Source: a virus (taxonomy: Duplodnaviria; Caudoviricetes). Taken from it: a DNA stretch of 24,013 nt. Made by a program: the position numbers and the translations under genes. Where the stretch lies: IMG/VR virus record IMGVR_UViG_3300005254_000063, positions 1-24,013 of that record. One strand, 5' to 3'. Positions 2,883-11,615 of this stretch are shown here, in pieces; position 1 is the first letter of the stretch; each line of letters begins with the position of its first letter. The notes under the pieces were generated by a model that saw only the letters and a list, made by a program, of their open reading frames with translations, was not told the origin of the DNA and did no database searches.

Positions 2883-3431
2883 ATGAATTTTGTGGAGCCC
2901 ATCCGGCAGCAGGGCCTTATCCATGACATTGCCGCCCATCTTAAAAGGAGAAGCGAGAGAGATTATATCATGTTCCTGATCGGCGTCTATACCGGGTTAC
3001 GAATATCCGATATCCTCAAACTGAAAGTCAGGGACGTAAGAAACAAAAACTATATTATCCTTAGAGAGCAGAAAACCGGCAAGCAGCAAACGCTTGAAAT
3101 TAATCCGTACCTAAAACGGGAGCTGGCCAAGTACATCATAAATAAAGATGATGATGAGTACCTTATCAAATCCCGGCAGAACCTGGACAAACCTTTAACG
3201 AGGGTCCAAGCATATAGGATACTCAAAGGGGCAGCTAAGCACTTCAGGCTTCAGTCAATCGGCTGCCATACCCTGCGTAAGACATTCGGGTATCACTTCT
3301 ACCAGCAATATAAGGACGTGGTGACCCTGCAGCAGATCTTGAACCACAGCCATCCAAGTGTCACTCTTCGGTACATCGGCATTGAACAGGAGACCAAGAA
3401 CACTGCCATCAGAAAGCTCAAACTTTTTTAA
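2883..3431 (+). CDS. Small tyrosine recombinase (catalytic domain only; resolvase-like family of Firmicutes phage late regions)
   Basis: TGLRISDIL, EQKTGK, HTLRKTFG, LNHSHPSVTLRY catalytic motifs; 182 aa; GAGGAG RBS. Confidence 0.92.
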   Translation: MNFVEPIRQQGLIHDIAAHLKRRSERDYIMFLIGVYTGLRISDILKLKVRDVRNKNYIILREQKTGKQQTLEINPYLKRELAKYIINKDDDEYLIKSRQNLDKPLTRVQAYRILKGAAKHFRLQSIGCHTLRKTFGYHFYQQYKDVVTLQQILNHSHPSVTLRYIGIEQETKNTAIRKLKLF

Positions 3432-3441
3432 AAAACTTGGT

Positions 3442-3560
3442 TGAGTAACATATTGAGCCAACGTTACATTAAATTTTTTGAAATGTATTTAAGCCCAATA
3501 TTTTGAAGTGCTCCCGGGTATTTTTTGAGTGTAACACAATGTACTGATATGTATCACTCA
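3442..3560. repeat. Imperfect inverted repeat downstream of the small recombinase (candidate recombination site)
   Basis: Left arm TGAGTAACATAT...GTTACATT (3442-3470) resembles the reverse complement of 3527-3560 (TGAGTGATACATAT...GTTACACTC); AT-rich spacer between them. Confidence 0.45.
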
Positions 3561-3579
3561 CATAGAAATATATGGGAAC

Positions 3580-3612
3580 TTGTAGGACGGAAGCAAGCTA
3601 AGGGTAGAGGGA
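3580..3612 (+). promoter_or_regulatory. 33-bp direct repeat, copy 2; candidate late promoter of the morphogenesis operon
   Basis: TTGTAGGACGGAAGCAAGCTAAGGGTAGAGGGA, exactly 840 bp after copy 1 and immediately upstream of the RBS of the first late gene. Confidence 0.6.
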
Positions 3613-3630
3613 CATTTACGGAGGGCAAAA

Positions 3631-3864
3631 ATGGATTACACGTGGTTGATTACGGCGGCCTCGATCATGGGCGTGGTGGCGAACATATATAAGAAGCCCT
3701 GGTGCTTTGCGATATGGACGTGCACCAACATATCATGGCTGTTGATTGACTTCGCGGCCGGGCTTTATGCCCAGGCTTTTCTGTTTGCGTTGTATATCGT
3801 TTTATCCATCTGGGGTCTGGTGCAGTGGAGGATGGATGAAAGGAAAAATGTAACGACTGGATAG
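3631..3864 (+). CDS. Half-size PnuC (nicotinamide riboside transporter)-like membrane protein, 3 TM helices
   Basis: 77 aa, hydrophobic; W.F.IW..TN..W...........LF.LY...SIWG..QW pattern resembles the C-terminal three-helix bundle of PnuC; GGAGGG RBS. Confidence 0.7.
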   Translation: MDYTWLITAASIMGVVANIYKKPWCFAIWTCTNISWLLIDFAAGLYAQAFLFALYIVLSIWGLVQWRMDERKNVTTG

Positions 3865-3977: not shown

Positions 3978-4535
3978 ATGCCAAAAGATGTAAAGGATGA
4001 TATTTCGGATTTAATCGTGACCACTGACGTAATGGCCGGTATTTTGGGCTTTACCCGTCAAAGGGTAAACCAGCTGGCCAAGGAAGGCGTCCTGGAGAAA
4101 AAAGCCCCGGGGCGCTTTTATTTGATGCATAACATTAAAAAGTATATTGAGTTTATACGCCTTGGGTCGACCGAAGATGAAGATGATGCCGCAACATATT
4201 ATTGGGAAGAAAAGGGCATCCACGAAAGAGCAAAACGGGAGATTTCTGAACTGAAACTGGCGGTGCTGAAAAACAGGCTCCATGATGCCGCCGATATTGA
4301 GATGGTGATAACGGGCATGCTGGTGACCTTTCGGAGCCGGATGCTGGGCATGCCGGCCAAGCTAGCGCCGCTGCTTATCGGACAAACCAACCAGGCAGAA
4401 GTGCAAACCATCCTGGACAAAGAAGTCCGGGAGGCCCTGACCGAGCTTTCTGAATATGATCCGGCGATGTTCGCCGGAGGCGGTGAACTGGTAGATGAAG
4501 AAGAAGACGAGGAATTTATTTCAGAGAATCCTTAA
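3978..4535 (+). CDS. terS: Terminase small subunit (lambda Nu1-like)
   Basis: N-terminal winged HTH (VMAGILGFTRQRVNQLAKEG), coiled coil ERAKREISELKLA, overlaps the large-subunit gene; ATG 3978 preferred over GTG 3969 from SD spacing. Confidence 0.88.
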   Translation: MPKDVKDDISDLIVTTDVMAGILGFTRQRVNQLAKEGVLEKKAPGRFYLMHNIKKYIEFIRLGSTEDEDDAATYYWEEKGIHERAKREISELKLAVLKNRLHDAADIEMVITGMLVTFRSRMLGMPAKLAPLLIGQTNQAEVQTILDKEVREALTELSEYDPAMFAGGGELVDEEEDEEFISENP

Positions 4536-6375
4536 AACCTTAGCCCCGCCGCCGAAGCTGACCGTCAGCCAGTGGGCGGACAGTAGACGTAAACTTTCCG
4601 CCGAAAACTCGGCGGAGCCCGGCCAGTGGCGTACGGACCGGGCTCCGTACCAGCGGGAGATTATGGATTGCGTTACGGATCCGCAGGTAGAAAAGGTCGT
4701 TATAAAAGCCAGCAGCCAAACGGGGAAAAGCGAGATAGTAAACAATGTCATCGGCTATTACATTGATATTGACCCCGGGCCGCTGCTGATGATTCAGCCG
4801 ACGATTGAAATTGCCCAGGATTATTCCAAACGGCGGATTACGCCGATGGTTAAGGATACTGAAGTGCTGGCGGCGAAGGTGGCCGACAGCAAGACAAGGG
4901 ACCTGAACAACACTATCCTGATGAAGGTATTTCCCGGCGGTTTCCTGGCGATGGCCGGAGCCAACAGCCCGGCCGGCCTGGCCAGCCGGCCGATTAAGGT
5001 TTTACTTTGCGACGAGGTGGACAGGTATCCCGAGAGTGCCGGCGGCGAAGGTGACCCGATTGCCCTTGGTGAAAAGCGGACTATAACCTTTTGGAACCGG
5101 AAAAAGATATTCGCGTCCACCCCCACGGACAAGGACGTTTCCAGAATTGACACCGAATACGAGCTGGGCACCCAGGAAGAATGGCGGGTGAAGTGCCCCG
5201 GGTGCGGTAAACACCATTTTATCGTGCTCCGGGATATCCAGTTTAAATATGATAAGCATGAGCAAAACAAAAAGTTTGTCTACGTTGTCCATGAGGTCAG
5301 GTGGCGCTGTCCGGATTGTTTGAACGAGTACGATGAGTACACCATGAAAAGGCAGCCGGCGGCCTGGTTTGCCAATAATCCGGCGGCCCTGGAAAACGGT
5401 ATCCGCAGCTTTCGGCTTAATTCCTTTGTGTCACCGTGGTATAGTTGGAAACGCATTGTGCAGGAGTTTCTGGAAAGCAAGAACGATCCGGAACTGTTTA
5501 AGGTTTTCGTTAACACGGTGCTGGGTGAATCGTGGGAAGAGCGCGGCGAAATTGATGATGAATCTATCCTTTTGGACCGGCGCGAAGAATACGAAGCGGA
5601 GCTCCCCGATGGGGTACTGATTCTCACCTTGGCGGCGGACACCCAAGACGACCGGCTTGAATATGAGGTTATTGGTTGGGGCCACGGGGAAGAGTCGTGG
5701 GGCATAGAAAAGGGGGTTATCTGGGGGAAGCCGGATGATAAGAGTACCTGGCAGTTGCTCGATGATAAGCTTGATAAAACGTGGCACTTTGCCGACGGTA
5801 TCGGTCTGGTGGTTGCCTGCGCCTGCATCGACAGCGGCGGCCACTTTACTGAGAATGTCTATCAGTATTGTGGTAGCCGGTTGAATAAACGGGTATTTGC
5901 CATAAAAGGCGAGGGCGGCTCCGGTATTCCTCTGGTGTATAAGATCAGCCGGAATAATAAGTATAAGCTGCCCTTGATATTGTTAGGCGTGGACAGCGGC
6001 AAAACGTCTATCATGCAGCGGTTAAAGATAAAACAGCCGGGTATAAAATACTGTCATTTCCCGGTCCAGGAAGAGCGCGGTTATGACCAGATGTATTTTA
6101 AAGGGTTGATTTCAGAGAAACAGGTAATCCGGAAGGTGAAGGGCCAGGCGGTTAAGGTCTGGGAGAATATCGCCAAAGATAAAAGAAACGAGCCGTTAGA
6201 CCTCCGGGTATACAATCTCGCGGCCTTGCAACTGATGAAGCCTAATTTCGACGCCCTTGAAAAACGGCTGAAAGAAATTACATCGGGATCGGTTGCCGTC
6301 TCCGGAAGCAGTTCAAAACTCAAAGCGGGACAGACTCAACAAAAGTACGGTTGCGTTAAAAAGTCAGCCGTTTAA
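4495..6375 (+). CDS. terL: Terminase large subunit (lambda GpA family)
   Basis: LTVSQWAD...PGQW..DRAPYQ N-terminus, Walker A SSQTGKS, Walker B LLCDEVD, STPT motif, CxxC pairs, nuclease motifs ADTQ/IDSGG/RNEPLD. Confidence 0.96.
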   Translation: MKKKTRNLFQRILKTLAPPPKLTVSQWADSRRKLSAENSAEPGQWRTDRAPYQREIMDCVTDPQVEKVVIKASSQTGKSEIVNNVIGYYIDIDPGPLLMIQPTIEIAQDYSKRRITPMVKDTEVLAAKVADSKTRDLNNTILMKVFPGGFLAMAGANSPAGLASRPIKVLLCDEVDRYPESAGGEGDPIALGEKRTITFWNRKKIFASTPTDKDVSRIDTEYELGTQEEWRVKCPGCGKHHFIVLRDIQFKYDKHEQNKKFVYVVHEVRWRCPDCLNEYDEYTMKRQPAAWFANNPAALENGIRSFRLNSFVSPWYSWKRIVQEFLESKNDPELFKVFVNTVLGESWEERGEIDDESILLDRREEYEAELPDGVLILTLAADTQDDRLEYEVIGWGHGEESWGIEKGVIWGKPDDKSTWQLLDDKLDKTWHFADGIGLVVACACIDSGGHFTENVYQYCGSRLNKRVFAIKGEGGSGIPLVYKISRNNKYKLPLILLGVDSGKTSIMQRLKIKQPGIKYCHFPVQEERGYDQMYFKGLISEKQVIRKVKGQAVKVWENIAKDKRNEPLDLRVYNLAALQLMKPNFDALEKRLKEITSGSVAVSGSSSKLKAGQTQQKYGCVKKSAV

Positions 6376-6392: not shown

Positions 6393-6629
6393 GTGTCCAC
6401 TGATAGACTTCAAAAAGCAAAGGACCGGCTAAACGCATATTACGAAGCCGAGCTTGCTATCCTGGCTGGTCAGGAGTACCGTATCGGTACCCGGACGCTG
6501 CGCCGGGCGAATCTGCAGGAAATAAGATCCGCTATAAATGAACTGGAAAAACTGGTCAAACAGTTAGAGGACCAGGCAAGCGGCATTACCACAACCCGGG
6601 CCCGCCGGGTAGTGATAAGGGATATATAA
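6393..6629 (+). CDS. Head-to-tail joining protein (gpW/DUF6148-like)
   Basis: YYEAELAILAGQEYRIGTRTLRRANL pattern; between terminase and portal as in lambda. Confidence 0.8.
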   Translation: MSTDRLQKAKDRLNAYYEAELAILAGQEYRIGTRTLRRANLQEIRSAINELEKLVKQLEDQASGITTTRARRVVIRDI

Positions 6630-6641
6630 GGCGGTGGTCGT

Positions 6642-8726
6642 TTGAATATAGTAGATAAGGCAATAGCGTTTTTTAGCCCGGAAAAAGTGTTGAAGCGCCA
6701 GGCCGCCCGCCGGGCGCTGCAGTTTCTGAACACCGGGTATTCTGAGTCCGGGGCTTCCAGTAAAAAAAAGTCCGTGAAGGGATGGAGGGCCAAGTCCAGC
6801 AGCCCTCAGGCGGACATTGACGCAAACCTGGATACCCTGCGGCAAAGGTCCAGGGACCTGTTTATGAGCGGTGCCATTGGGCGATCGGCCATCGTTACCC
6901 CGAGGACCAATGTAATCGGCCCCGGCTTAAAGCTGAAAAGCAGGATTGATTACAAGTATCTGGGTCTTACCCGGGAGCAGGCGGACCAGTGGGAAAGGAA
7001 TACTGAGCGCGAGTTTTCAATATGGGCGGAGAGCCGGTTCTGTGACACGCTGCGCCTGAACAATTTTTACGAGCTTCAATCAATCCTGTTCATTTCGTAC
7101 CTGCTGAACGGCGATGGCTGGTCGCTGATAAAGCAGGCCGACCCGGAATCGTTTTTCCCTTACAGCCTGCGCCTGCACCTTATCGAGGCAGACCGGGTAA
7201 GTACACCAAAGGAGAGCGGCGCCGGTCTTTTTTCCGCTTCGGCCACGCTGGGCAAAAATCCCGAGAACGGTAACCGGATTTATAACGGGGTTGAAGTTGA
7301 CGGATCCGGGGCGGTGGTTGCTTATTGGATATCCAACGGGTACCCCGGGGATCCGGTCAACCCTACGGGGATGATGAAGTGGCAGCGGGTGGAAGCTTTC
7401 GGCGTCCGTACCGGCCGGCCAAACGTGCTGCAAATCATGGAGGCCGAGCGTTGCGAGCAGTACCGTGGTGTTCCGTTTTTGGCGCCGGTATTGGAAGCGG
7501 TTAAGCAAATCAGCAGGTATACCGAAGCCGAACTGATGGCGGCCATTATCACCGGCTTTTTTACGGTGTTTATTAAAGAGAGCCAGAGCCAGACAGTGGA
7601 TTTCCCTCTTATTGAGGCCATCCCGGGAGAGGAAAAAGTTGACCTGGATCCCAACGCCTTTGAGCTGGGTGCCGGGACCATCAATACTCTGCCGCCGGGG
7701 TATGACGTTTCCATGGCCGACCCTAACCGGCCGTCCTCTAATTTTGACGCCTTTGTGACGGTTCTGGCCAGGCATATTGGCGCGGCACTGGAGATGCCGT
7801 ATGAACTATTGTTGAAGAGTTTTACCGCCAGCTATTCAGCCAGCAGGGCGGCGCTGCTGGAAGCATGGAAGTCATTCCGGATGCGCCGGACCTGGTTTGC
7901 CAGTGATTTCTGCCAGCCGGTATATGAGCTATGGCTTGATGAAGCAATTGCCCGGGGGGTTGTTACCGCACCAGGTTACTTTAACAGCCCGGCGACGGCC
8001 AAGGCCTGGAGCAAGGCGGAATGGCACGGGCCCGCACCGGGACAGATTGACCCTGTTAAAGAAGTTAAGGCAGCCCAGATGCGGGTTGACAGCGGCTTTT
8101 CCACCCGGGAGCGTGAAACCATAGAGATTACCGGCGGGGACTTCGATAAGAACATTGAGCAGTTACAGCGAGAAAACGAGCTGATGAAACAGGCCGGATT
8201 ATTAGAGGCTACAAGTGGGGGTGAAAGCGACCGCCATCCTGTAATACCGACAGGCCTTCGGTTGTTACCGCAACCACCGCGAAATAGCAAAATCATTAAA
8301 CCATCTGGCAAGAAAAACGAAGACAAGCTACCCGAGGTCAAACAAGTGATTAAAACCCTATCTAAAGAGGACAAGGCCGAGCTCGGCCCACGGTACTTCT
8401 ACGACGACTCGCAATATCGTTACATCGTTGAAAGAGATGACAAACCAGTTGGATTCATTGAAAACCGTGCCACTGGCAAAAAGGGACACTTTAACCTTGC
8501 TGTTGACCCTGACTATAGAGGCCAAGGGATAGCCGACGAGATGGTTGACCAAGCCATTACTGATGTTCCAGTGGAGATGTCGAACCTTGAAAAAATTCTA
8601 TGGATTACATCTGAGGGTAACGAAGCATCAAGGAAATTAGCTGAAAAGCACGGTTTTGAGCTGACATCTGAAGAAGATGGCGAGGTTAGGTACACATACT
8701 GGCTGAATGGGGGCGGTGGCGAGTGA
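6642..8726 (+). CDS. Lambda-family portal protein with C-terminal GNAT acetyltransferase domain
   Basis: Portal motifs LRQRSRDL, LHLIEAD, QYRGVPFLAP, SYSASRAALLE, IDPVKE (aa 1 to about 529); aa 530-694 contain GNAT motifs AVDPDYRGQGIA and NEASRKLAEKHGF. Confidence 0.95.
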   Translation: MNIVDKAIAFFSPEKVLKRQAARRALQFLNTGYSESGASSKKKSVKGWRAKSSSPQADIDANLDTLRQRSRDLFMSGAIGRSAIVTPRTNVIGPGLKLKSRIDYKYLGLTREQADQWERNTEREFSIWAESRFCDTLRLNNFYELQSILFISYLLNGDGWSLIKQADPESFFPYSLRLHLIEADRVSTPKESGAGLFSASATLGKNPENGNRIYNGVEVDGSGAVVAYWISNGYPGDPVNPTGMMKWQRVEAFGVRTGRPNVLQIMEAERCEQYRGVPFLAPVLEAVKQISRYTEAELMAAIITGFFTVFIKESQSQTVDFPLIEAIPGEEKVDLDPNAFELGAGTINTLPPGYDVSMADPNRPSSNFDAFVTVLARHIGAALEMPYELLLKSFTASYSASRAALLEAWKSFRMRRTWFASDFCQPVYELWLDEAIARGVVTAPGYFNSPATAKAWSKAEWHGPAPGQIDPVKEVKAAQMRVDSGFSTRERETIEITGGDFDKNIEQLQRENELMKQAGLLEATSGGESDRHPVIPTGLRLLPQPPRNSKIIKPSGKKNEDKLPEVKQVIKTLSKEDKAELGPRYFYDDSQYRYIVERDDKPVGFIENRATGKKGHFNLAVDPDYRGQGIADEMVDQAITDVPVEMSNLEKILWITSEGNEASRKLAEKHGFELTSEEDGEVRYTYWLNGGGGE

Positions 8727-9898
8727 AGTTCTGGAATTTTATTAAAAACGAAGCGAACCCCGAAGAGGTTGAACTGCGTATTGAAGGCCATATTGTTGAC
8801 GATGAAAACGCATGGCTGTATGAATGGTTTGATATTCCGGCCGCATCTCCTAACGCTTTCAGAACCGAGTTGGCGCAGTATGCCGGCAAGAATATAACAG
8901 TCTGGATTGATAGTTACGGTGGCAGTGTATTTGCCGCAGCGGGCATTTATACCGCGCTGATGGAACATAAGAAAAGCGGCGCCAGAATTACGACCAAAGT
9001 AGACAGTAAGGCAATGAGCGCGGCTACGGTTCCGTTTATGGCCGGTGATGGAAGATTAATGAGCCCGCCGGCAATATTCATGATCCATAACCCACTTGTT
9101 GAAGTCTATGGTTACGCTTCGGAGCTCAGGAAGGCCGCCGATTACCTTGACGTTGTCAAGGAGACTATCATCAGCGCTTACCAAATGGGGACCGGTCGTT
9201 CCGCGGCAAAGATTTCGGCAATGATGGACGATGAAACCTATATGAGCGCCAAAACAGCCGTGAAGGAAGGTTTTGCAACCGGCATTCTTTATGCTGACAC
9301 CAATATTCAGCCTGTGGAAAATTCTTTCATGTTCAGTCATGCCGCGATACAAAATAGTTTTTCGGCATCAACGAGAAGTATTATCAATCAGCTCAAAGAG
9401 CTTGGTATGGCTGGCCCAGCAGGCGCCGGCTTAAATATACCAAATAAACAGGAACCGGCCGCAACGCCGCAGCCTGTAAATAATTCCAAGGAGGATGAGA
9501 CAGTGGAAATCAAAAACGCGGATGAGCTGAGACAGTATTTCCCTGATCTGGTCGCCCAGGTTGAAGCAGCGGCCAAGGATGAGGGGGCGAAAACCGAGAG
9601 GCAGCGCATCCAGGCCATCGACGAGATCGGGGCCGCTATCACTCCCGATCTTGCCAACAAGGCCAAGTACGAGGAGCCTATGACTGCCGAACAACTGGCC
9701 TTCCAGGCGCTCAAAGCCGATGCGGCCAAGGGTACCCAGTACCTGGCCCAGATCCAGCAGGACAGCCAGGATTCCGGCGCCAACAACGTGGTCGGTCAGC
9801 CCCAGGCGGAACCTGCCAAGGGAAAGGATACGAAGGCGGAAAAGGAAGCGGCCGCGCAGTCCATTGCGGACTTCGCCAACAAGAGGAGGGATAAGTAA
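8723..9898 (+). CDS. ClpP-type head maturation protease with C-terminal scaffold domain
   Basis: IDSYGGSVF, AMSAAT (catalytic Ser), FMIHNP (His), ETYMSA..AVKEGFA; helical ERQRIQAID C-terminal part. Confidence 0.93.
   Translation: MKFWNFIKNEANPEEVELRIEGHIVDDENAWLYEWFDIPAASPNAFRTELAQYAGKNITVWIDSYGGSVFAAAGIYTALMEHKKSGARITTKVDSKAMSAATVPFMAGDGRLMSPPAIFMIHNPLVEVYGYASELRKAADYLDVVKETIISAYQMGTGRSAAKISAMMDDETYMSAKTAVKEGFATGILYADTNIQPVENSFMFSHAAIQNSFSASTRSIINQLKELGMAGPAGAGLNIPNKQEPAATPQPVNNSKEDETVEIKNADELRQYFPDLVAQVEAAAKDEGAKTERQRIQAIDEIGAAITPDLANKAKYEEPMTAEQLAFQALKADAAKGTQYLAQIQQDSQDSGANNVVGQPQAEPAKGKDTKAEKEAAAQSIADFANKRRDK
9503..9898 (+). CDS. Nested in-frame scaffolding protein (lambda Nu3 analogue), 131 aa
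   Basis: Perfect SD AAGGAGG at 9488-9494, 8 nt before an in-frame GTG (codon 261) that follows a Pro/Gln/Ala linker. Confidence 0.7.
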   Translation: MEIKNADELRQYFPDLVAQVEAAAKDEGAKTERQRIQAIDEIGAAITPDLANKAKYEEPMTAEQLAFQALKADAAKGTQYLAQIQQDSQDSGANNVVGQPQAEPAKGKDTKAEKEAAAQSIADFANKRRDK

Positions 9899-10551
9899 TG
9901 GGAGACCTGTACTACAACCTGGATTCCTTTACCCCGGACAACCTGATCGCCGGTAACGAGTTCCCGCTACTGACCAAAGCGGTGACCCTGCAGGGCGCCC
10001 AGGGCGTGGTCAAGCGCGGCACGGTTCTTGGTGAAATCACCAAGGCCATTGGAAACCCGGTTGCTGATGCCGGCAATACGGGAGATGGCACCGTTACGGA
10101 TGTTTCGCTTGGCAGTGCAGCCAAGTTGGGCACCTATATCCTGGAGTGTATCACGGCAGCTGCGAACGGTGGTACTTTCAAAGTACTCGACCCGGACGGC
10201 GTGCGCCTGGATGATGCTGATGTGGGGGCAGTTTACACTGGGGCAATTAATTTTACAATTAATGACGGCGCAACCGATTTTGCTGTGGGTGATAAGTTCA
10301 CCATCGAAGTGACTGAGGGCAGCGGCAAGTATAAAGTTGTTAACTCGGCCAACGTGGATGGCAGCCAGGAAGCGGATTGCATCCTGGTGGCCGACATAGA
10401 CACCACGGACGGGGATATTGTAGCCGAAGCGTACCGAAGCGGCCACTTCAATCGTAAGGCGCTTATCTTCGGCGGCGGAGACACTGCGGCCAACCATGAA
10501 GAAAAGCTCAGGGAACTGGGTATTCACCTGAGCGATAACATTCCGTACTAA
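9898..10551 (+). CDS. Head decoration protein (lambda gpD-like) with internal beta-rich insertion
   Basis: PDNLIAG, KRGTVLG, GSQEADCIL, AYRSGHFNRKAL, LRELGI motifs; located between protease and capsid genes. Confidence 0.88.
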   Translation: MGDLYYNLDSFTPDNLIAGNEFPLLTKAVTLQGAQGVVKRGTVLGEITKAIGNPVADAGNTGDGTVTDVSLGSAAKLGTYILECITAAANGGTFKVLDPDGVRLDDADVGAVYTGAINFTINDGATDFAVGDKFTIEVTEGSGKYKVVNSANVDGSQEADCILVADIDTTDGDIVAEAYRSGHFNRKALIFGGGDTAANHEEKLRELGIHLSDNIPY

Positions 10552-10565
10552 GGAGGTAGGGTGAA

Positions 10566-11615
10566 TTGTCTATCAACATCTATGAAACCAGGACCATGAT
10601 GCAGGCCATCGATAAGATGAAGCCTGTGCGAACCTTCCTCCGGGATACTTTTTTCCCGGGCATTGAGACGTTCCCCACTGAAAAGATTGACGTTGACTTC
10701 CGTAAAGGCAAGCGTAAAATGGCTCCGTTTGTGGCCCGTAACAGCGGCGGCATTACCATGGACCGGCAGGGCTTCCAGACCAACACCTGGGAGACACCGT
10801 ATATTGCACCCCAGCGGGCACTGACTAAGAACGACCTCACCAATCGAATGATGGGTGAGAACGTATACAGCACCCGCACTCCGGAACAGCGGGCCATGGA
10901 ATTGCTGGCCAGGGACCTGATCGAGTTGGATGACATGATTGCCCGTCGGGAAGAATGGTTCTGCCGGCAGGTACTGCTTTACGGCCTAGTCACCATCAAG
11001 GGCTGGATTGACAAGTTTGGCTCTGACTACGTGGAGGACACCGTTAACTACCAGTTCACCAACAAGGAAACCCTGGCCGGGGCGGACGCCTGGACCGAGG
11101 CCACCAGCAAAAAGTACGAGGACCTCAAAGGGGCCCGCCTGCAAGTGATCCAGAAGAGTGGCCAGAATCCGAACATCGCCATCCTGGCCAACAACGTGGT
11201 GGACCTGTTCATCAACGATGCCAACATCCAAAAGCTTTTGGATATCCGGAACCTGACCATCGGTACCGTCCAGCCCAGTGTTCAGGCTGAAGGTGTTACC
11301 TACATCGGTACCCTAACTAGCCTGGGCCTGGAGCTTTACAGCTATGATGAGTGGTTTCTGGATGATGATGGCGTGGAATATCCCATGATTCCAGACAACT
11401 ACGTGGTTGTTGGCCGGGCCAACCTGGGTACCAGGCTATACGGCGCTGTAACGCAGCTTGAAGAAAGCGACGGGGAATTCCACACTTATGAAGGTACCCG
11501 TATCCCGAAGGTGTGGAAAGATGTTAACAATGACACCAAGATGATTCGCGTTGCCTCCCGGCCGCTGCCCAAGCCTGAAGACGTGGACGCCTGGTATACG
11601 TTGGTAGTGGCGTAG
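10566..11615 (+). CDS. Major capsid protein (lambda gpE family)
   Basis: FLRDTFF, RKMAPFV, RREEWFCRQVL..G, YGAVTQ, SRPLP motifs; 349 aa; AAGGAGG RBS before TTG. Confidence 0.95.
   Translation: MSINIYETRTMMQAIDKMKPVRTFLRDTFFPGIETFPTEKIDVDFRKGKRKMAPFVARNSGGITMDRQGFQTNTWETPYIAPQRALTKNDLTNRMMGENVYSTRTPEQRAMELLARDLIELDDMIARREEWFCRQVLLYGLVTIKGWIDKFGSDYVEDTVNYQFTNKETLAGADAWTEATSKKYEDLKGARLQVIQKSGQNPNIAILANNVVDLFINDANIQKLLDIRNLTIGTVQPSVQAEGVTYIGTLTSLGLELYSYDEWFLDDDGVEYPMIPDNYVVVGRANLGTRLYGAVTQLEESDGEFHTYEGTRIPKVWKDVNNDTKMIRVASRPLPKPEDVDAWYTLVVA

Follow-up and report, generated by a model that had tools for sequence, protein, structure and literature searches.

A GNAT acetyltransferase domain fused to a lambda-type portal protein recurs on unrelated phage head proteins and may be virion cargo

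In the present study, we analyzed IMGVR_UViG_3300005254_000063, an IMG/VR virus record (Duplodnaviria; Caudoviricetes), the whole of which, 24,013 nucleotides, is referred to here as the window; profile matches indicate that it encodes a head module of the lambda type and a module for a contractile tail. An open reading frame (ORF) of 694 aa in the head module (6642..8726, + strand), which has a TTG start and a stop codon overlapped by the GTG start of a ClpP gene, was confirmed to encode a lambda-family portal protein that continues through a linker into a GNAT acetyltransferase domain. Judging from sequence comparisons, this domain is a distinct and strongly conserved phage family that has been gained repeatedly by head proteins, and it may be carried in the virion as cargo.

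The ORF has no internal stop, and both of its parts were matched by profiles. The portal part (aa 1-527; 6642..8222, +) was matched by phrog_21 over aa 1-527, by PF05136 over aa 43-416 (E 5e-96; 322 bits vs a curated cut-off of 32.9 bits) and by TIGR01539 over aa 47-522 (224 vs 172.7 bits); it resembles lambda gpB (8k38, E 1.5e-36), and its gene lies between gpW-like and protease genes, as in lambda-family portals. A Pro/Lys-rich linker (aa 528-560; 8223..8321, +) leads into the GNAT domain (aa 561-689 by the family boundaries; 8322..8708, +), in which PF00583 matched aa 585-672 (E 2e-13). An earlier, sequence-only reading of this DNA had proposed a portal with a C-terminal GNAT fusion, and this architecture was borne out, whereas its boundaries shifted: the portal ends at approximately aa 522-527 rather than 529, with nt 8322, instead of 8229, as the start of the folded domain.

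Regarding the possibility that the fusion is an assembly chimera or a chance read-through with no selected function, the window DNA was found in one sequencing run only, and the third-position GC content (GC3) is 0.65 in the portal and 0.47 in the extension (p 6e-5), with 19 of 140 control windows, mostly tail fibre, being equally low. However, positions 7000-9500 are covered by a single Logan contig (depth 15.7) that shows 0 differences, 0 gaps and 0 joints, and neither a stop nor a frameshift was present in the contigs near 8230, where the sequence-only reading had located a possible artefact; since the run may be the source sample, this contig counts as a second assembly and not as a second sample. 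Furthermore, a 100% copy of the fusion locus was found (L020), independent lambda-portal GNAT fusions occur in L003, L007/P0005 and P0013, and approximately 30 independent fusions and strong purifying selection on the domain argue against an artefact, the probability of which we regard as negligible; it was rejected because the 694-aa protein is present in two collections, including a JGI record, and the contig is gap-free across the junction. A search for a promoter within the fusion gene gave a single site, which is on the reverse strand and no better than chance, and no RNA dataset is listed among the holders of the window DNA, which says nothing about expression.

The carriers of the domain bear on the cargo interpretation. 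A search with aa 555-694, restricted to proteins of 381-1215 aa, returned 15 matches, each of them a head protein: three lambda portals (the query included), nine HK97 portals (in one of which MuF follows the GNAT domain), one Mu portal and two ClpP proteases. Locus scans and a profile search of 1.84 billion proteins added further carriers, namely XkdF and other head proteases with the GNAT domain fused N-terminally (P0031, P0038 and P0029), P0028 as a second Mu portal, and two MuF-containing chains, a GNAT-MuF protein in L017 and a Mu portal-GNAT-MuF protein (P0106). A family set of 37 rows was compiled from the 15 size-limited matches, five of the six from another search, ten proteins from the upper end of the profile search (mostly single-GNAT, with large multi-GNAT proteins excluded from the set) and seven further loci. 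Among these chosen rows, 26 are on a portal, head protease or MuF protein by profile and 4 by inspection, one is a cut-off ORF in portal position and six are short or other, while tail and major capsid proteins are not represented; P0022, apparently a piece of an L003-type fusion, was not included among the stand-alone genes, and P0023 and P0026 are without context. Since one domain is repeatedly attached to head proteins as unrelated as these portals, head proteases and MuF proteins, the virion-cargo interpretation is stronger than it was in the sequence-only reading.

The single named host of the family is a Syntrophomonadaceae metagenome-assembled genome, and a species-genome scan gave one locus; among 125 genomes of the order of this host, the family was found in one, on a phage-like contig already known, and nothing was found elsewhere among them. 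For P0014, the source gives the label Sediminibacterium. In cultured phages, the only matches were three weak, generic GNATs (24-32%), and the ESM Atlas yielded nothing but generic GNAT clusters, while no family match was obtained in plasmids at 1e-8 or in PADLOC. Annotation pipelines name P0006 and P0014 plainly 'portal', a label that makes such cargo easy to overlook.

The closest GNAT domain, which is 90% identical, is on an HK97 portal (P0002), the portal part of which is without similarity to that of the window (E 0.22). The closest portal (L033, 82%) ends at approximately aa 532 without the linker and runs directly into ClpP, and the window has approximately 490 extra bases at this portal/ClpP junction. 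The domain was found in 0 of 53 sibling-portal loci (two of which are cut off before the stop), a count that is not a frequency because the pattern scan missed L003 and L007, both GNAT-bearing, and the four GNAT-bearing lambda portals need four changes on a quick tree of 38 distinct portals, from which fragments and the most distant rows had been dropped. In 21 pairs of GNAT domains, synonymous differences are near saturation (pS 0.60-0.96) and non-synonymous differences are low (pN 0.05-0.18), and, thus, the high identity reflects constraint rather than a recent jump. The L020 copy of the window phage and the HK97-type phage of L021, which has a 90%-identical GNAT, were assembled under the same prefix and share 88% DNA at window positions 3434-3839; these phages may exchange genes in one community.

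The domain was modelled by AF2 with a pLDDT of 94, and the GNAT fold, the motif A pattern R-x-x-G-x-A and the motif B Asn were all found. Motif A (AVDPDYRGQGIA, aa 620-631; 8499..8534, +), predicted to bind acetyl-CoA, has R626 in 37/37 rows and G629 in 36/37, and motif B (NEASRKLAEKHGF, aa 660-672; 8619..8657, +) has N660 in 37/37, S663 in 36/37 and A667 in 34/37; both motifs had been recognized in the sequence-only reading, and the acetyl-CoA site is intact-looking. A family signature, LGPRYFYDDSQYR (aa 581-593; 8382..8420, +), which is presumed to form the acceptor-side loop, has G582 and R584 in 37/37 rows and Y587 and R593 in 36/37. Invariance was seen at G582, R584, E607, R626, N660 and F672, and this points to an active enzyme that has a single fixed acceptor.

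The best whole-domain folds were PAT (3f8k; Z 16.6, rmsd 1.8, 118 aligned) and PA4794 (16.3), which are effectively tied, followed by S. lividans Pat (15.5), RimI (15.0) and the SpeG-type 5ix3 (13.5). Protein and peptide acetyltransferases accordingly rank first by full structural alignment, whereas SpeG ranks first by sequence and by Foldseek E-value. The latter ranking, in which SpeG is top in the PDB (E 2e-11 by profile, with similarity reaching upstream of motif A), in NCBIfam and in Foldseek, is in favor of an alternative that shares the loading and injection proposed below and in which the domain acetylates polyamines or another small amine, such that less free spermidine or putrescine would be available during the first minutes of infection. 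Strong conservation fits a small-molecule substrate, and the window domain is acidic (net charge -9). Moreover, seven phage-encoded SATs are active, early spermidine depletion has been proposed to act against CRISPR and restriction (PMC9992855), and polyamine build-up inhibits phage replication in Pseudomonas (PMC9992862).

We nevertheless consider the acetylation of polyamines to be improbable. Foldseek TM-scores are mostly 0.60-0.64 (one 0.72) to SpeG vs 0.81 to PAT, SpeG alignments begin only at SpeG residue ~40, net charge ranges between -11 and +13 across the family, and 12 copies, the ceiling per head, would scarcely deplete a pool of millimolar size. Ala667, found in 34/37 rows, occupies the position aligned to the motif-B Tyr of SpeG, which we take to be catalytic in that enzyme, and Tyr is found in none. 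With a score for the SpeG equivalog NF011709 (36 bits) far below the cut-off of 218 bits and the motif-B Tyr missing, membership in SpeG was rejected. This Tyr acts as the general acid in GNATs (PMC8072286), and SpeG is a dodecamer (PMC8076852) that has an allosteric polyamine loop. Ser663 may correspond to the catalytic Ser that takes the place of Tyr in the Ser-type GNATs RimL, MccE and PA3944 (PMC8072286), the equivalence to S148 of PA3944 being drawn from the motif and not from a superposition.

The crown is the C-terminal and most internal domain of portals (PMC4493910), and green fluorescent protein fused to the C terminus of the T4 portal sits inside the prohead, with 4-6 subunits replaced (PMC10893049). 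Since the crown faces inside and the T4 fusion is inside the prohead, the GNAT domain is likely to be located within the head, as the sequence-only reading had assumed. Its figure of up to 12 copies per head holds as a ceiling only and not as an expectation, given the 4-6 fused subunits that engineered T4 portals took.

Taken together, we tentatively propose, with somewhat less than even confidence, that a mobile GNAT domain is built into the head on the inner end of the lambda-type portal, cut free by the prohead protease, injected into the host, and acetylates a conserved host protein early in infection. The benefit would be a head start in host takeover or the blunting of a defence before phage genes are expressed. 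We infer injection and a protein target by analogy with T4 Alt, phiKMV Rac and polyvalent proteins.

The candidate releasing enzyme is the adjacent ClpP-type prohead protease with a scaffold tail (8723..9898, +), which was matched by PF00574, phrog_94 and, above its cut-off, NF045542. It has been shown in SPN3US that short, repeated motifs are where prohead proteases cleave the portal and internal proteins (PMC10052503). Strong short scaffold repeats are present in L017:1645-3129, P0035, P0043 and P0029 (LSE x6; GEM x10 in two proteins; xEA/xES), and repeats of this kind may give the cut site of each protease; in L017, a ChaB domain is additionally found at the N terminus of the Mu-type protease. 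We derived motifs from scaffolds and pro-regions blind to the linkers and checked them in 21 domain flanks. The LSE repeat (six copies, p 3e-9) occurs on both sides of the domain in L017 (1/1 vs 0/20), the GEM repeat (10 copies in two proteins) follows the domain in 2/2 vs 0/19, and the domain of P0106 is flanked by a thrice-repeated F[AQS]E. These flanking motifs, most of which come from phages other than that of the window, suggest release by the prohead protease. Where a ClpP protease is the carrier, the domain is inserted ahead of a C-terminal tail that is itself retained, and the tail of P0011 resembles those of plain ClpPs in L002 and L009; the C-terminal tail of such proteases binds the capsid.

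Regarding the specificity of the ClpP-type protease, Asn30 of the portal (6729..6731, +), its presumed N-terminal maturation site, is kept in 25 of 28 non-gap alignment rows and aligns with residue 21 of lambda gpB (G32 with residue 23). The clade motif [FVI][LIM]N/[STA]GY (the slash marks the presumed cut), also in 25/28 rows, lies at the position matching gpB residues 21/22, and gpB is presumably cut near residue 21. This conservation hints that the protease of this clade cuts after Asn, a specificity that a literature search did not find in print. No dominant trimer emerged from the pro-regions of ClpP or for XkdF, the Asn sites of the ClpP scaffold show poor conservation across 39 sibling proteases, and a count of T4-like xxE leaders over 144 distant relatives was uninformative. 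Release by the prohead protease is plausible for the family and uncertain for the window phage.

A number of observations weigh against the proposal that the domain is released and delivered as a protein acetyltransferase. Delivery requires cleavage because the portal stays in the head, and the candidate sites in the window linker, PRN/S and KKN/E, are without the hydrophobic P3 residue that is commonest at the other presumed sites. Among the motifs tested, GEM could be the native N-terminal site of its carrier, the S78-class motif fits only 2/4 vs 1/17 flanks (p 0.08), and the occurrence of Asn within 3 aa of the domain in ClpP heads (8/11 vs 2/10, p 0.02) is weak because this test was chosen after inspection and includes five related, non-independent linkers. 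DNA similarity to L001, L002 and L003 extends into ClpP, and, thus, some moves involved blocks of GNAT and ClpP together. Resolution of the GNAT tree is poor, with 2 of its 34 branches starred, such that the order of transfers is not recoverable, and change as slow as that observed is usually atypical for an arms-race effector. The SpeG-first ranking in sequence searches and Foldseek E-values counts in the same direction.

Some of these points are shared by a different explanation, in which the domain is not delivered and acts in the producer cell or prohead, for example on head proteins, fresh N-termini or polyamines near the packaging channel, with the fusion giving only late expression and position. 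The portal is not among the ejected parts, the cytoplasm of the producer is the only place where acetyl-CoA is available, and the fold neighbours include the N-terminal acetyltransferases RimI, Ard1 and NatA as well as proteins named 'internal virion protein A'; fusion to a protease would also put the domain at new cut sites, and the release signals are weak for the window phage. On the other hand, the lack of the domain in 53 sister-portal loci argues against a core assembly factor, and its presence on lambda, HK97 and Mu heads alike makes a phage-specific substrate unlikely. The scaffold repeat on both sides of the domain in L017 and the flanking repeats in P0106 also count against this explanation, as does the occurrence of relatives of the domain among host-directed enzymes. 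Action in the producer cell is, in our assessment, a serious but rather unlikely explanation.

The close packing of the head genes bears on whether the domain is a MuF-type polymorphic toxin, or the toxin of a GNAT toxin-antitoxin pair acting by tRNA acetylation, that harms the recipient or competitors. In GNAT toxin-antitoxin pairs of the AtaT/TacT type, the antitoxin gene is adjacent. The sole small ORF adjoining the fusion encodes a gpW-like head-tail adaptor (6393..6629, +; phrog_118 E 7.5e-20, DUF6148), and ClpP overlaps the stop codon, in line with the statement in the sequence-only reading that no antitoxin gene is adjacent. The domain and MuF occur together in P0014, L017 and P0106, and MuF toxins are encoded at the same place in the head module (PMC5576092). 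However, 89% of MuF toxins have an immunity ORF (PMC5576092), whereas the next head gene follows within 37 nt in 15 of 16 loci and leaves no room for one, the exception being L017, the gap of which contains an 87-aa reverse-strand ORF. The domain is also conserved rather than polymorphic, and no toxin-antitoxin toxin was present among the structural matches listed. A toxin is thus very improbable. Modification of DNA by the domain, another option in the sequence-only reading, is the least supported.

Returning to delivery into the host, a more general and more doubtful proposal is that one acetyltransferase family serves as plug-in capsid cargo, which unrelated phages attach to any protein exposed to the head interior (three types of portal, several prohead proteases and MuF), in each case next to a cleavage site of the phage's own maturation protease, and which is injected to acetylate one conserved host target and so disarm the cell ahead of phage gene expression. 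Portals are core structural proteins that have seldom been seen as carriers, and the recurrence of one enzyme on portals of the lambda, HK97 and Mu types, as well as on head proteases, points to selection for placement in the head interior, whatever the carrier. If this is the case, acetylation would join the modifications that phages deliver at the moment of infection, and the system would provide a virion-delivered acetyltransferase effector together with a rule, found in nature, by which proteins are loaded into phage heads. The rule, that a scaffold repeat marks the release site, is testable and may be used to predict head-loaded proteins or to design them in laboratory phages. Since the domain is well folded and only 129 aa in length, its host target may be found by an acetylome analysis.

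The fusion gene is preceded by a gene for a lambda gpA-type large terminase (4495..6375, +; PF05876, PF20454), and the protease gene is followed by genes for a head decoration protein and a lambda gpE-type major capsid protein (9898..11615, +; PF02924, PF03864). The decoration protein (9898-10551) has 217 aa vs 116 positions in the profile, with an internal insertion of approximately 85-100 aa that is likewise present in L003 and L007. Upstream of the terminase genes are two tyrosine-recombinase genes (1074-2057 and 2883-3431; one encodes the catalytic domain only) and genes for a radical-SAM protein (35-859) and a small membrane protein similar to PnuC, an NMN transporter family (3631-3864). 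Elsewhere, L006:3473-4267 is an HNH endonuclease gene between the portal and ClpP-GNAT genes, and L029:4193-4669, in an AT-rich, large-phage-like contig, is a stand-alone family member that has a short N-terminal leader and is encoded on the other strand from its neighbours.

Distant relatives of the domain occur in phage-like proteins of 500-2000 aa, with SET among the neighbouring domains. Of the 144 distant relatives, 97 are longer than 300 aa, and many of the 92 covered by a PHROGs scan have phosphoesterase, NUDIX, endonuclease, helicase, MazF-like or RNA polymerase domains, a pattern that is typical of polyvalent proteins. P0161 and P0145 have a related GNAT and RNA polymerase beta-like domains in one chain, and in P0039 and P0056 the GNAT is joined to a SET domain. 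A DUF6582-like motif is present in 25 of the 144 (e.g., P0034, P0036, P0040, P0042 and P0046), a DUF7211-like motif in seven and H-D-x-x-G-R-F in three. These motifs may be capsid-targeting tags of multi-enzyme phage proteins; a literature search on DUF6582 and DUF7211 found nothing relevant.

In terms of known systems, portals with a fused PBECR, 2H or InPase domain have been described, as have two families of GNATs among polyvalent proteins, family 1 being represented by BAR32501.1 with an ART neighbour (Iyer 2017, PMC5512222). The portal/MuF fusions and polyvalent proteins of that study are similar to the window protein in that an enzyme on a head-module portal is predicted to be packaged and injected, and in that RimI-like GNATs occur in polyvalent proteins; however, the portal fusions that it names are not GNATs, and ClpP/XkdF protease fusions and hopping among three portal families do not feature in its available text. 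Polyvalent proteins also have several effector domains per chain, whereas the window protein has one enzyme domain on a structural carrier. Alice gp113, the exemplar of GNAT family 2 in that study, gave no profile match, with an hhalign probability of 0.9% in a comparison of one sequence with a shallow profile. Our literature search found no report of a portal-GNAT or protease-GNAT fusion, within a coverage that left out most subscription papers and with Burroughs 2007, on packaging systems, and the supplements of Iyer 2017 as places where such fusions may be listed. Portal-borne cargo is, thus, already in print, whereas this GNAT family, its hopping and the protease-motif lead appear not to be.

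MuF polymorphic toxins share with the window protein a cargo enzyme on a minor head protein beside the portal in Firmicutes-type temperate phages (PMC5576092, PMC3482391). The window protein differs from them in having no MuF (no PF04233), no immunity ORF and a conserved domain, although a MuF domain is present in the relatives P0014 and L017; neither 'GNAT' nor 'acetyltransferase' occurs in the text examined of Jamet 2017 (PMC5576092) and Zhang 2012 (PMC3482391). T4 Alt and phiKMV-like Rac are phage enzymes that modify host RNA polymerase, of which Alt is injected and Rac is a GNAT (PMC5512222, PMC7824862; the latter also covers jumbo-phage GNATs). However, Alt is a packaged ADP-ribosyltransferase that is neither a GNAT nor fused to a portal, and Rac is not described as virion cargo in the available text.

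SpeG and phage SATs are the best sequence match, and differ in that the window domain is approximately 40 aa shorter, scores far below the cut-off and has no motif-B Tyr; known phage SATs are separate proteins, and portals or capsids are unmentioned in the available text (PMC9992855). Sulfolobus PAT, S. lividans Pat and RimI provide the best folds (Z 15-16.6) at 12-25% identity, and a shared fold does not define the substrate. In comparison with these three enzymes, the LGPRYFYDDxQYR loop and the Ser-type motif B are particular to the GNAT family of the window.

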